IMG/VR virus record: IMGVR_UViG_3300033076_000838
Location: 47,836-111,835 of that record
From: a virus
Lineage: Duplodnaviria; Heunggongvirae; Uroviricota; Caudoviricetes
Length of the DNA stretch: 64,000 nt
Direction: 5' to 3' (one strand)
A program made the position numbers and the translations under genes. Positions 54,518 to 62,306 of the stretch are shown here, in pieces (the stretch's first letter is position 1; each line of letters opens with the position of its first letter). The notes under the pieces are model-generated. The model was given only the letters and a program-made list of their open reading frames with translations. It searched no databases and was not told the origin of the DNA.

Positions 54518-54550
54518 ATGTAATAATTGATAATGATAAACTCTAAAAAT

Positions 54551-56653
54551 ATGACAAAAACACACTCCTCTTATTGGATGACAGATTGGGATGATACATC
54601 GGTCGTTTTTAATACTATGAACGATTCTGAACGTAAATCCTATGACGTTTATAAACTGGCTGCTTCTAAAAGAGCTATTTCAAACTTTGTGAATATAGTA
54701 ACCAACTCACAAATTCCGGTTCGATTCTCTGAAAAAGGTAATTCTTACACCGATGGTGAAAATGTGGTTATTGGTTCTAACATTACCGAACCCAAAGATT
54801 TTGACATCGCAGTAGGTTTGGCACTTCACGAAGGTTCTCACATCAAATTATCTGATTTCAAATTACTACATAAATTAGATACTTTAATTCCACAATATCT
54901 TAAAGATTCAGCGATTAAGAAAGGTATTCTTAATCCGATTTCTACAATCAAAGATATTTGGAACTATGTAGAGGACAGACGAATTGACTGGTACATATTC
55001 AGTCAGGCACCCGGTTATCGTGAATATTACCGAGCAATGTACGATAAGTACTTTAATGACCCTTTAATTGATAAGGGCTTGAAATCAGATGAATATACTG
55101 ATGAGACAATCGAAGCTTATATGTTTCGTATCATCAACTTACACAACTCCAATACTGATTTAACTAAGTTAGGTGGTCTTCGTAAGATTTATTCACTTAT
55201 TGGATTGGGTAATATCGCTCGATTACAAAACACACAAGATACATTAGACATCGCAATGTTAGTGTTTGAAGAAATTCTTAACCACTTACCTCCTGCTCCA
55301 CAAGGACAACCACAACAATCACAAAATGGGCAAGGTCAATCCTCTGATGGTGAAGAAGGTGATAATGGTGGTTCTGGTTCACAAGGTAATTCTGAAATGG
55401 GTGAAGATGAAGGTGATAATGGTAATGATGGCGATGGTGAATCGGATGAAGATGGTGAATCAGAAATGACAGGTGATATGGAAGAGGATTCTATGGGTGG
55501 TTCTTCGATGAGTATGAGTAATCCAGCAGATGGTGGTAAACCTTCTACTGATGATGGTAAAACTAAGAAGAGTTCATCAGGTACGATGTCAGACACTCAA
55601 AAGAAATTGTTAGATAAGAAAATCGAAAAACAAAAAGATTTCGTACGAGGTAAGATTAATAAGAAAGGTATGAGTAAACGAGAGTTACAAGACCTTAACG
55701 CAGTTGAAGAATCTGGTACTGAAATGGAATCCGTAGGTGGTGATGTTCCAACTGGTTGGGGGAATCCTCAACGTGGTACGGAATGTATCGTTGTTAAGAA
55801 ATTGACAGATTCACTTATGAATTCAGATTTATTCCCACTTACTTACATCGATTACAAATCTAAACAATTTATCCCACATTATTCAAAGGAAATCACTGAT
55901 GGTATTCGAATCGGTACTTTGTTAGGTAAGAAATTACAGGTACGTGGTGAATCGAGAACTACAATCTTCAATCGCCAAAAGAATGGTCGAATTGACAAAC
56001 GTATGATTTCTTCATTAGGTTTTGGTAACGAAAACGTGTTCCAATATTTAGAAACCGATTCTTACTCAAAAGCCAACCTACACGTTTCATTAGATGCATC
56101 TGGTTCGATGAGTGGTATTAAATGGAAACAAACTCTAACAAACGTAACAGCGTTGTGTAAAGCGGTTGATATGATTTCCAATTTATCAATTCAGGTTTCA
56201 ATCAGAACTACTGACAATAATGGTAAACCTTACGTGGTGATTGCTTACGATTCTCGTACTGATAAGTTTAGTAAAGTTAAGAAATTTTTCCCTGGTCTTA
56301 ACGCTAGTGGTACTACACCGGAAGGTTTATGTTTCGAAGCGATTATGAAGACCTTAGTTCCTTCAACAAATGATACGGATTCTTATTTCTTAAACATCTC
56401 CGATGGTGAACCTTATTTCTCTGGTAGAAACTTTCAGTATCAAGGTGAACCTGCTTTCAACCACACTGCTAAGATGGTTAAACAAATTGAGGGTATGGGA
56501 ATTAAGACACTTTCTTACTTTGTTGAAGAGTATGGTAGAGGTGAGGTAAGTCGTGGATTTCGCAAGATGTATGGTAAAGGTGCCCATGCAATCGATGTGA
56601 CAAACGTTTCCCAAATCACTAAGACAATGAATAATTTATTCCTTTCAAAATAA
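54551..56653 (+). CDS. CobT-like VWA-domain protein with N-terminal HExxH
   Basis: 'LALHEGSH'; acidic Gly/Asp/Glu linker; MIDAS 'LDASGSM', 'GTTPE', 'ISDGEP'; start reassigned to ATG 54551. Confidence 0.85.
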   Translation: MTKTHSSYWMTDWDDTSVVFNTMNDSERKSYDVYKLAASKRAISNFVNIVTNSQIPVRFSEKGNSYTDGENVVIGSNITEPKDFDIAVGLALHEGSHIKLSDFKLLHKLDTLIPQYLKDSAIKKGILNPISTIKDIWNYVEDRRIDWYIFSQAPGYREYYRAMYDKYFNDPLIDKGLKSDEYTDETIEAYMFRIINLHNSNTDLTKLGGLRKIYSLIGLGNIARLQNTQDTLDIAMLVFEEILNHLPPAPQGQPQQSQNGQGQSSDGEEGDNGGSGSQGNSEMGEDEGDNGNDGDGESDEDGESEMTGDMEEDSMGGSSMSMSNPADGGKPSTDDGKTKKSSSGTMSDTQKKLLDKKIEKQKDFVRGKINKKGMSKRELQDLNAVEESGTEMESVGGDVPTGWGNPQRGTECIVVKKLTDSLMNSDLFPLTYIDYKSKQFIPHYSKEITDGIRIGTLLGKKLQVRGESRTTIFNRQKNGRIDKRMISSLGFGNENVFQYLETDSYSKANLHVSLDASGSMSGIKWKQTLTNVTALCKAVDMISNLSIQVSIRTTDNNGKPYVVIAYDSRTDKFSKVKKFFPGLNASGTTPEGLCFEAIMKTLVPSTNDTDSYFLNISDGEPYFSGRNFQYQGEPAFNHTAKMVKQIEGMGIKTLSYFVEEYGRGEVSRGFRKMYGKGAHAIDVTNVSQITKTMNNLFLSK

Positions 56654-56658
56654 ATCAT

Positions 56659-56686
56659 AAGCCGTTGAAAATCAACGGCTTTTTTA
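56659..56686 (+). terminator. Intrinsic terminator
   Basis: AAGCCGTTGA-AAA-TCAACGGCTT then T tract. Confidence 0.9.
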
Positions 56687-56707
56687 TTGAAAAAAAGTGA
56701 TAAAATA

Positions 56708-56741
56708 TTTGGATATATCAGCAAAAATGTGTAGTTTAGCT
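56708..56741 (+). promoter_or_regulatory. Variant promoter TTTG-N20-TAnnTTAG(CT)
   Basis: TTTG 56708-56711, TAGTTTAG 56732-56739. Confidence 0.65.
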
Positions 56742-56758
56742 GTATAAGATTGAGAGAT

Positions 56759-56824
56759 ATGAAATATATGATTTTTGATTCCCTGATGTTAGTTTTTCGA
56801 GTTCTAAAAATGTTAGGATATTAG
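56759..56824 (+). CDS. 21 aa hydrophobic micro-ORF (not in ORF track)
   Basis: MKYMIFDSLMLVFRVLKMLGY; same leader GAGAGATATGAAA as the ORF at 54335. Confidence 0.4.
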   Translation: MKYMIFDSLMLVFRVLKMLGY

Positions 56825-56843
56825 AAAAAAAACATCAAAAATA

Positions 56844-56877
56844 TTTGGAAATGTGAAATAAATTTCCTAGATTAGCT
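56844..56877 (+). promoter_or_regulatory. Variant promoter TTTG-N20-TAnnTTAG(CT)
   Basis: TTTG 56844-56847, TAGATTAG 56868-56875. Confidence 0.65.
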
Positions 56878-56913
56878 AAGTAATAATTGATAACAATAAA
56901 ACATAAAAAAATT

Positions 56914-58125
56914 ATGAGAAATTCTGAAATTGTGGTTGGTTTAGTTCCCAACGAGGTTTACAAGGTTGAAAAGTTTGGTTCAACATTTAAGATGATTGAC
57001 ACCAACGGAAATAAGGTTGGTACATTAGGTACATCTTTAACCCGTAAACAAGCCTTTGAAGAAGGTAAGGCAGTTCAAGCCTATGTAGATAAAAGTGGTA
57101 AAAAAACTTACCGCAAGGTTGCTATGGATGTGTATAACAATTTGGTCGTTCCTATGAATACTCAAAATGGTGGGGTTCAACACGAGGAATCAACTGACCA
57201 TTCAGCCGTTAAAGATTTTATCCACAAAAGTTCGGTTTCATTAAAACCTCGTGAGATGGTAATGACCGACCTTAAATGGAAATATTTAATTCGTTCAGCA
57301 GTTCGTGCTAAGAACATTATGATGACAGGTCCTGCTGGATGTGGTAAAACTATGGCAGCAAAGGCATTGGTTAAATCACTTTCTCGTCCTGATTTCTACT
57401 TTAACTTAGGTGCTACACAAGACCCCCGTGCTACCTTAATCGGTAATACGCACTTTGACCAAAAGAAGGGAACGTTCTTCTCTGAATCGGCATTCGTTAA
57501 AGCGATTAAGACTCCAAACGCAGTAATCTTATTAGATGAGTTGAGCCGTGCTCACCCTGATGCTTGGAACATCTTAATGACGGTGTTAGACCAAGGCCAA
57601 CGTTATTTACGTTTGGATGAAGCGGAAGGTTCACCGATTGTGAATGTTGCCGAAGGTGTTACCTTTATCGCAACTGCCAATATTGGTTCGGAATATACAT
57701 CAACTCGTGTGATTGACCGAGCTATCTTAGACCGTTTCGTAACGATTGAGATGGATGTGTTGAATGAAGAACAAGAATATGGGTTGTTAAAGTTTATGTT
57801 CCCAGATGTTGATGACTTCGAATTAAAAGCAATTTCAGAAATTGCACATCACACAAGAACTCAATCGATGAGCGAAAACGGCAAGTTGACCTCGATGATT
57901 TCGACTCGTGCTTCGGTTGAGATGGCTGGATTGATTTACGATGGTTTCAATTTGTTTGAAGCCGCAGAGATTTCAATCTTCCCATTCTTCTCTCCGGATG
58001 GTGGTGTGGATTCTGAACGTACTTATGTGAAACAATTGGTTCAAAAGTATGAGAAAGATGAAACTGGTAAACCTCTTTTCAATGAGGTTGTAGAAGATAA
58101 TGTGGATGAAATTCCGCAGTTTTAG
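56914..58125 (+). CDS. MoxR/CbbQ/NirQ-family AAA+ ATPase (CobS-like)
   Basis: 'GPAGCGKT', 'LLDELSRA', 'FIATAN', 'DRAILDRF'; start reassigned to ATG 56914. Confidence 0.9.
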   Translation: MRNSEIVVGLVPNEVYKVEKFGSTFKMIDTNGNKVGTLGTSLTRKQAFEEGKAVQAYVDKSGKKTYRKVAMDVYNNLVVPMNTQNGGVQHEESTDHSAVKDFIHKSSVSLKPREMVMTDLKWKYLIRSAVRAKNIMMTGPAGCGKTMAAKALVKSLSRPDFYFNLGATQDPRATLIGNTHFDQKKGTFFSESAFVKAIKTPNAVILLDELSRAHPDAWNILMTVLDQGQRYLRLDEAEGSPIVNVAEGVTFIATANIGSEYTSTRVIDRAILDRFVTIEMDVLNEEQEYGLLKFMFPDVDDFELKAISEIAHHTRTQSMSENGKLTSMISTRASVEMAGLIYDGFNLFEAAEISIFPFFSPDGGVDSERTYVKQLVQKYEKDETGKPLFNEVVEDNVDEIPQF

Positions 58126-61481: not shown

Positions 61482-61513
61482 TTTGGAAAATTGAAATAAT
61501 TGTTGTATCTTTG
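61482..61513 (+). promoter_or_regulatory. Bacteroidetes-type promoter
   Basis: TTTG 61482-61485, 20 nt spacer, TATCTTTG 61506-61513. Confidence 0.75.
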
Positions 61514-61538
61514 ATATAACACAAAAATACAAAAGAAG

Positions 61539-61591
61539 TGTGGTAAAAGTCCCACCACATGGATTTTGATTGATTAATCATTAAGAGGACT
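61539..61591 (+). ncRNA. Structured 5' leader (hairpin, possible pseudoknot)
   Basis: TGTGGT/ACCACA stem; loop AGTCC complementary to GGACT at 61587-61591. Confidence 0.35.
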
Positions 61592-61605: not shown

Positions 61606-61932
61606 ATGGCAAAAGCTATTAAGACAAAAGTTGATTACCAAGTAAGTGAATTAGTAAGCAACTTAAACGAAGCAGCAACAACTACTTCTGAGCAAAAACG
61701 TGATTTCTACACAACACGTGCATTGTACAACGCAAAAAGATTATCTACAATCTTAGGTAAAGCTAAGGTAGGTGCTATGGCATTAATCGTAGCGGTAGGT
61801 ATGACAGCATGTGGTTCAGCTACATCAGAAAACACAGCAGATTCAACTGCAGTTAAGGCTGATTCAACTGCAACAATCACAACTGATTCAACTACTGCAC
61901 CAGTTGCAGATACTACATCAGTAGTGAAGTAA
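61606..61932 (+). CDS. Lipoprotein-like protein with internal signal, Thr/Asp/Ser-rich tail
   Basis: About 55 aa N-terminal extension, then 'AMALIVAVGMTAC' lipobox and 'ADST' repeats. Confidence 0.65.
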   Translation: MAKAIKTKVDYQVSELVSNLNEAATTTSEQKRDFYTTRALYNAKRLSTILGKAKVGAMALIVAVGMTACGSATSENTADSTAVKADSTATITTDSTTAPVADTTSVVK

Positions 61933-61935
61933 TTA

Positions 61936-61978
61936 AGTGGAGCTTAAGGAGTGTAGGGTTCGAATCCCTACTCCACTC
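61936..61978 (+). ncRNA. tRNA-like minihelix (acceptor stem + T-arm, no D/anticodon arms)
   Basis: AGTGGAG/CTCCACT 7 bp stem; TAGGG-TTCGAAT-CCCTA T-arm; 11 nt linker. Confidence 0.6.
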
Positions 61979-62011
61979 AAATTTTTTTAAACTAATTAAA
62001 CATAAACTATA

Positions 62012-62278
62012 ATGAAAACTTTTAACGATTTAGAATTTAATAAATTGGATTCATTTTATAATGGAGTTCAAGCACGAGTAATCTTTGAAAATGGATATGG
62101 TGCATCAGTAGTGAAACATGATTTTTCTTATGGGGGTAAAGATGGGTTGTATGAACTTGCAGTAATAAAAGATGATGATTTGTGTTACACAACACCTGTT
62201 ACTAATGATGTTGAAGGGTATTTATCAGAAGACGAAGTAACCGAATTGTTAAAACAAATTCAAGAATTAAAATCATAA
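62012..62278 (+). CDS. Conserved phage hypothetical protein
   Basis: 'FENGYGASVV...SYGG..GLYELAV' pattern. Confidence 0.7.
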   Translation: MKTFNDLEFNKLDSFYNGVQARVIFENGYGASVVKHDFSYGGKDGLYELAVIKDDDLCYTTPVTNDVEGYLSEDEVTELLKQIQELKS

Positions 62279-62300
62279 TCACCTGAAAGGGTGATTTTTA
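62277..62300 (+). terminator. Intrinsic terminator
   Basis: AATCACCT-GAAA-GGGTGATT plus T tract. Confidence 0.75.
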
Positions 62301-62306
62301 ATTAGT

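Follow-up and report, generated by a model that had tools for sequence, protein, structure and literature searches.

Plant mitochondrial t-elements are tRNA-derived mimics of the acceptor/T-arm stack that have a conserved T-loop and no encoded CCA, lie at an mRNA boundary, may also lack the anticodon or D arm, and have been proposed to act as RNase P or RNase Z signals (PMC1920247; PMC11658184; PMC5499578). Elements of such shape were shown to define mRNA ends (PMC1920247) and to receive CCA without being charged (PMC11658184). An acceptor stem joined to a T stem-loop is also the classical minimal substrate of RNase P, with full activity in vitro (PMC11143913). This construct, with an NCCA-like tail, is found in RNase P model substrates (McClain et al., 1987, as cited in PMC11143913) and in synthetic minihelices, among them one of tRNA-Gly (10.1101/2024.07.05.602228). 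In phages, hairpin-like RNAs have been shown to be cut by bacterial RNase P; the P1/P7 C4, P4 CI and phi80 M3 RNAs are examples of host RNase P acting on non-tRNA phage RNA (PMC5499578).

A natural element of comparable design is encoded by a giant freshwater phage known from a 287,455-bp virus record. The window analysed here is a whole stretch of 64,000 nucleotides from that record, and positions 61936 to 61980 of its + strand hold a tRNA-Gly-derived minihelix made up of A-1, a 6-bp acceptor stem, an 11-nt linker, a 5-bp T-stem with its T-loop, U73 and C74-A-A. The 5' acceptor strand (61937-61942) pairs with 61971-61976. A linker (61943-61953, with a GG at 61948-49) replaces the D, anticodon and variable arms, and the T-arm (61954-61970) pairs TAGGG (61954-58) with CCCTA (61966-70) around the canonical loop TTCGAAT (61959-65). 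The discriminator U73 and a degenerate CCA occupy 61977-61980 by homology, CAA being 61978-80, and a tract of seven T (61982-61988) begins 3 nt after C61978. On inspection, AGTGGAG (61936-61942) pairs with CTCCACT (61971-61977), and A61936 can pair with U61977; the acceptor/T arm thus spans 11 bp when numbered by homology, or 12 bp if A(-1):U73 is included. The tRNA-Gly and tRNA-Gln genes of this genome also end in CAA, and nearly all of the genome's tRNA genes encode C74 while few encode CCA. An earlier note on this DNA had described the acceptor-like stem, the T-arm, the linker with its GG, the lack of CCA and the T tract that follows, and the sequence is as it claimed.

The element is real, and it is the only occurrence of a short-linker acceptor plus T-arm motif in the 287-kb genome; when the window was simulated 150 times with an order-3 Markov model, looser rules gave a match in 2 cases. 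The folding energy by itself does not stand out (z -1.7), and the proof of the minihelix is comparative. In the context of the transcript, T-arm pairs were predicted with a probability of 0.82-0.99 and acceptor pairs with 0.43-0.48 at 37 C and 0.61-0.65 at 15 C. With default thresholds, neither ARAGORN, which the earlier note had named as a check, nor Rfam returned a match to the element in the window; Rfam searches with gathering and E-value cut-offs were likewise empty for the element, for the 5' UTR and for the downstream stem-loop of relatives described below. The element does not belong to RF00005, as it has no D or anticodon arm and no covariance-model match over threshold. A relaxed ARAGORN call of tRNA-Ser was rejected as spurious because it takes in ORF sequence. 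No second copy was found in the genome by regular expression or covariance model, and a scan with the exact sequence gave 0 matches among viral contigs, a set from which close genomes may be missing. A loose pattern returned 120 stretches, and the 80 inspected were ordinary tRNA/tmRNA ends or unrelated.

The ancestry of the element was read from related jumbo phages. Homologs of the 108-aa ORF that precedes it were taken from viral and metagenome contigs, and a tRNA-like element was found behind almost every complete copy. Four forms occur at this site and make up a graded series of one tRNA-Gly-derived element: an expanded form of 85-100 nt with an insert within the D arm, a cloverleaf form of 71-74 nt, a linker minihelix of 40-45 nt that includes the element of the window, and a bare hairpin of 32-33 nt. 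Several cloverleafs were called tRNA-Gly by ARAGORN, and the long orthologues score 29.5-53.7 bits with RF00005. All long forms begin GCG and end CGC-U-C-N-N. These shared ends, together with the GCGGAG start of relatives, set the register of the window's element, with G1 at 61937, U73 at 61977 and CAA in place of CCA; the stem proposed in the earlier note stands, and its position 1 moves from 61936 to G61937. In a parse that leaves the end positions free, U73 and C74 were found in 67 of 67 distinct variants (32-100 nt) and A76 in 66, and all 67 have the acceptor/T-arm helix of 11-12 bp. The D and anticodon arms are variously expanded, kept or lost, and the T-loop is degenerate in some short forms. 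Taken together, the orthologues indicate that the element descends from a tRNA-Gly-like gene. An origin from the variable arm of tRNA-Leu was rejected, since the orthologues are Gly-type, and independent origins of the linker forms were considered and dropped. An AU test on the ORF tree rejected a single linker-form clade (p 0.0007), but this result says little, given the linker sequence in common and probable recombination. Separately, the expanded forms at L002:3370-3475 and similar loci carry a conserved 25-nt insert in the D-loop.

Members of the window's clade (bootstrap 100) share 44 of the 45 positions of the element, the sole variable one being 61946 (A/T) in the linker. The four-fold sites of the flanking genes are 13-25% and 35-60% different in more distant clade members, and the spacer has been rearranged, T tract included. 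By parsimony, the 45 nt of the element have undergone 1 change; the flanking genes have undergone 15 at 26 silent sites and 44 at 22, or 0.6-2 per site. At these rates 26-90 changes would be expected in the element (P ~1e-10 or lower, ~1e-10 being the value at the slower silent-site rate). Two more distant phages keep 44 of the 45 bases, while their next protein is 51% identical and their lipoprotein lacks its N-terminal part. Among eight linker variants, which represent four lineages so that covariation counts are not independent, 100% of cells were paired and both partners have changed in 5 of the 11 pairs; a control with the partners slid gave 38-60% paired. The element is under strong purifying selection as judged from these comparisons. 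Relatives do have a full-length tRNA-like gene at this site, which the earlier note had named as a sign of recent decay, but the short form is old and selected. The deletion of the arms, whose conservation in related phages that note had asked about, is shared by the window's clade and by the two more distant phages. The tRNA mimicry that it had suggested is likewise upheld by the conserved helix, T-loop, U73 and C74, by the compensatory changes and by the Gly-type ancestry.

The element is always found directly behind the lipoprotein gene, within a predicted transcript and distant from the tRNA genes. A tmRNA and some 25 tRNA genes, including an intact tRNA-Gly(UCC), are clustered some 48 kb further on. 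That cluster also holds three degenerate tRNA-like sequences with intact T-arms that were missed by ARAGORN (genome G000, ~160390-160485, 163580-163675 and 164000-164095, outside the window). The transcript is predicted to start from a match to the Bacteroidota promoter consensus (TTG ... TAnnTTTG) at 61483-61513 (+) that is kept in the clade. A conserved H-type pseudoknot in the 5' UTR (61535-61590, +) pairs 61539-44 with 61554-59 and GTCC (61549-52) with GGAC (61587-90), and ends ~15 nt before the start codon. It shows compensatory changes, with GGAAGCC/GGCAACC, GCGACCC/GGGAAGC and GACCC/GGGTC in relatives, and is absent from a few of them; it is a candidate cis-regulatory element. A possible base pairing between the 5' UTR and the acceptor strand was rejected because it fails across the forms.

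The first cistron is the lipoprotein-like ORF of 108 aa (61606-61932, +), which has a helical N-terminal part, a lipobox-like Cys69 and a disordered tail rich in D and S/T. The motifs of the tail resemble Bacteroidota O-glycosylation sites. A conserved helical extension of 55 aa lies ahead of the lipobox segment, Met58 and Cys69 are invariant, and homologs L372 and L373 lack the extension. A Pfam lipid-attachment match was obtained for a shorter homolog, with likeness to the PG1828 family below cut-off, and a structure prediction for the lipoprotein (pLDDT 63) gave nothing on mechanism. No lipoprotein homolog was found in named phages or bacterial genomes, and for this reason the host, probably a member of the Bacteroidota, is put forward from promoter type and lipoprotein signs. 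The minihelix starts 3 nt past the stop codon of this ORF, with G1 4 nt past it, and lies 31 nt upstream of the start codon of the second cistron, an 88-aa ORF of phrog_4074 (62012-62278, +) with no assigned function. A hairpin followed by a T tract (62277-62304, +; hairpin 62277-96) resembles an intrinsic terminator and would end the two-gene transcript. Elsewhere in the window, adjacent large ORFs at 54527-58125 look like a MoxR/vWA-type pair; one is an AAA ATPase by phage matches, and the other, of 708 aa, has an acidic linker and by eye a vWA-like end.

In relatives, the element has a partner. In 92 of the 93 variants outside the window's type, it is followed by a conserved stem-loop with a nearly invariant loop and then by a terminator. 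The stem-loop (for example at L010:3433-3520) is found between the tRNA-like element and the terminator at most related loci, with the loop GGTTATTCTCCGATTTACTTTAC. The motif lay behind the lipoprotein gene in 45 of 45 inspected viral matches with enough flank, no copy was found in bacterial genomes, and it had no Rfam match; it is likely a small RNA or a protein-binding site. The stem-loop is present in 0 of 14 window-type variants, which suggests that the minihelix was kept in this lineage after the loss of its partner. At L347:1501-1850 the stem-loop is present with no tRNA-like part, and the lipoprotein gene has an in-frame TGA just ahead of the lipobox segment. Many expanded-form loci also carry an upstream hairpin with a twice-repeated GTTGTAAAG, complementary to CTTTACAA of the downstream loop.

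A covariance model of the linker forms identified a second minihelix in a related genome. This class was found behind an SPFH/Band-7 gene in three relatives (L362:1504-1552, L376:1523-1571 and L380:1523-1570); it recurs in 2 of 8 homologous loci checked, and at two other loci the slot is occupied by a plain terminator. It shares A(-1), U73, C74 and the linker GG, shows compensatory changes, and has A1-U72/G2-C71 and no glycine identity; its stem begins inside the stop codon. The design is thus reused at gene ends whatever the amino-acid identity.

Among described systems the element is most like the t-elements. Its tRNA-gene origin is apparent from the tRNA-Gly-like cloverleafs with the same ends at the orthologous site, it has the GGTTCRANYCC motif, missing arms and no encoded CCA, and it sits at an mRNA boundary, this being a boundary of ORFs rather than of mapped transcripts. 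It differs from t-elements in being smaller (41 nt, with relatives down to 32 nt), in belonging to a bacterial phage (a 287-kb virus record and not a plant mitochondrion), in its strong sequence conservation and in the visibility of the whole reduction series; its cleavage is a prediction. At most, the element may work like a t-element. The bare hairpins of relatives are the RNase P model construct itself, whereas the window's element is natural, embedded in an mRNA, and has an 11-nt linker and CAA for CCA. As with P1/P7 C4, P4 CI and phi80 M3, a cut in relatives would free a structured RNA; those RNAs, however, have no T-loop, are themselves regulatory and are not derived from tRNA.

Other tRNA mimics are less similar. 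The tRNA-like domain of tmRNA has an acceptor and T arm with a stemless, D-loop-like GG and no anticodon. The window's element has G3-C70 in place of G3-U70, no CCA and no mRNA-like domain with a tag reading frame, and ARAGORN places the genome's tmRNA elsewhere. In mascRNA and menRNA, RNase P and Z cut out a small tRNA-like module that lies at the 3' boundary of an RNA. These RNAs are eukaryotic, have reduced D and anticodon arms and an upstream triple helix, and found no Rfam match here. The bacterial Y RNA YrlA is a tRNA mimic without an anticodon arm that is also found in phages, and some are cut by RNase P and given CCA (PMC4201824). YrlA has a D arm, a Ro60-binding module and an adjoining Ro60 gene, none of which is present here; the element has no Rfam match and the genome no TROVE gene. 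With the non-proteinogenic tRNA-Gly of Staphylococcus (PMC9976931), the relatives' long forms share Gly identity and features unfit for decoding, but the window form lacks an anticodon and has U2-A71, and no FemAB-type enzyme was found in the genome.

With a probability of roughly 0.55, the element acts in the manner of a t-element, as a processing signal read by RNase P and by the enzymes that trim 3' ends and add CCA, a tRNA-Gly gene having been kept purely for this purpose. The host-type promoter would give a transcript of the lipoprotein gene, the minihelix, the 88-aa gene and the terminator. The minihelix would fold into the acceptor/T-arm stack and be recognised by tRNA-maturation enzymes, which would be those of the host, since no gene for a CCA enzyme or an RNase Z-like protein was found in the phage genome. 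Cleavage on the 3' side with trimming back to U73/C74 and repair of the CCA, cleavage by RNase P at G61937 (or A61936), or both, would split the two cistrons and fix the 3' end, and hence the life-time, of the lipoprotein message. An RNA of 41-44 nt may come free, and in most relatives the same cut would release the conserved downstream stem-loop RNA.

Several observations favour the processing signal. The persistent core of the family (the 11-12 bp stack, U73 and C74) is the part read by tRNA-processing enzymes, and the N73-C74 end is like that of the phage's own tRNA genes. Strong selection at a constant site behind the same gene, within the transcript and far from the tRNA cluster, also counts for it, as does the non-Gly minihelix of the same design in a terminator slot elsewhere. 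The location ahead of a conserved stem-loop in 92 of 93 variants outside the window's type and the precedent of the plant t-elements (PMC1920247) point the same way. Of the roles listed in the earlier note, RNase P/Z processing fits best. Other observations count against it. The cut site is ambiguous, because the arm is of 11 bp and U73 is able to pair with A-1. With 4 nt from stop to G1, a terminating ribosome would probably melt the stem, and because the stem of the SPFH class starts inside the stop codon, 5' cleavage there would produce a non-stop message. These constraints would favour a 3'-side cut that leaves a tRNA-like mRNA end or, alternatively, a 5' cut acting only on untranslated messages. 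The stem-loop without a tRNA-like part at L347 and the degenerate T-loops of short forms also weigh against it. Processing alone leaves unexplained the fixation of 44 of 45 bases, linker included, and the C35-C36-A37 and full GlyRS identity of the long forms.

Glycine identity leads to a possible, if unlikely, alternative, in which the released RNA would be a CCA-ended, glycine-type acceptor mimic, charged by GlyRS for non-ribosomal use or acting as a decoy. The decoy would soak up toxins that read the acceptor stem (toxSAS and GNAT toxins) early in infection, and the host-type promoter suggests early expression. The identity set for glycine is G1-C72, C2-G71, U73 and C35-C36 (PMC9976931), and the long forms retain all of these along with G3-C70. 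Their position 33 is about 32 U, 8 C, 6 G and 4 A (n=50), against U33 in 25 of 25 tRNAs of the genome, and because this position varies they are probably unfit for decoding. Retained Gly identity with a free position 33 points to reading by a synthetase-like factor and not by ribosomes. The short forms have U73 in 17 of 17 cases, and G1-C72 and C2-G71 in 15 of 17 each. The toxin FaRel2 was shown to modify a tRNA-Gly minihelix efficiently, as a good substrate (10.1101/2024.07.05.602228), and phage Mu Mom uses Gly-tRNA-Gly (PMC13219725).

The form in the window fits this alternative less well. It has G1-C72 (G61937-C61976) and U73 (U61977), but C2-G71 and the anticodon C35-C36, both present in the long orthologues, are gone. 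With the U2-A71 of this lineage, a determinant of GlyRS, TacT (G71) and FaRel2 is lost, and L235 and L246 have A1-U72. The genome carries an intact tRNA-Gly, U73 occurs without Gly identity in the SPFH-class minihelix, and plant t-elements gain CCA and stay uncharged (PMC11658184). A search of the genome's genes found no Mom, FemAB, class II synthetase or Ro60 (TROVE), and its one GNAT match adjoins a sugar aminotransferase. A natural CCA-ended minihelix of glycine type, with an acceptor end that is charged or bound, serving as a non-ribosomal glycine donor or toxin decoy in a family formed by stepwise tRNA reduction, is a doubtful account. The docking of the linker GG on the T-loop, proposed earlier by analogy with tmRNA, is plausible: AGG is kept in 3 of 4 linker lineages, and five of five long variants with U56 have A for G19, a hint that the elbow contact matters in long forms. 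Such docking is not required, as several C56 variants lack the GG and the bare hairpins have neither D-loop nor linker.

Slightly less probable still is that the RNA stays uncut, as a stable hairpin or a dock for a tRNA-elbow protein that blocks 3' exonucleases or attenuates read-through to the second gene. Other phages fill the slot with terminators or plain hairpins, the window's lineage has lost the downstream terminator, and nearness to the stop codon argues against efficient access by RNase P. The T tract adjoins the element in this genome but lies 3 nt off the stem, and sister genomes that carry the same element lack it or have it interrupted. The element was not called as a terminator, no conserved U tract directly follows the hairpin, other lineages have their true terminator further downstream, and a mere hairpin would leave the T-loop, U73 and C74 unfixed. 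A functionless relic, whether left by the recent collapse of a tRNA gene or by an attP site, is very improbable even with full-length tRNA-like genes at this site in relatives, given 1 change per 45 nt against 26-90 expected, the compensatory changes, the 44 of 45 bases kept in phages whose neighbouring protein is 51% identical, the retention of both acceptor strands with a covarying 5' strand, and the lack of an integrase gene in a genome search for tyrosine integrases. Given the unconserved T tract, the lack of a tyrosine integrase and the purifying selection, the terminator, attP relic and recent decay raised in the earlier note fail.

No Rfam family was found, and a literature search, which was incomplete, gave no publication on such phage elements and no description of a phage minihelix or decoy. 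If the element is indeed a processing signal, tRNA punctuation, known from mitochondria, would also be used by phages of bacteria on their mRNAs, and such elements escape tRNA finders and Rfam. From cloverleaf down to 32-nt hairpin, the family forms a natural series of deletions that would reveal the parts of a tRNA on which host enzymes depend in vivo, and it offers ready substrates for RNase P, RNase Z, the CCA-adding enzyme and GlyRS. Should the RNA instead be charged or act as a decoy, it would provide a working minihelix from nature, where such constructs have so far come mainly from the laboratory, and may represent a new route of counter-defence.
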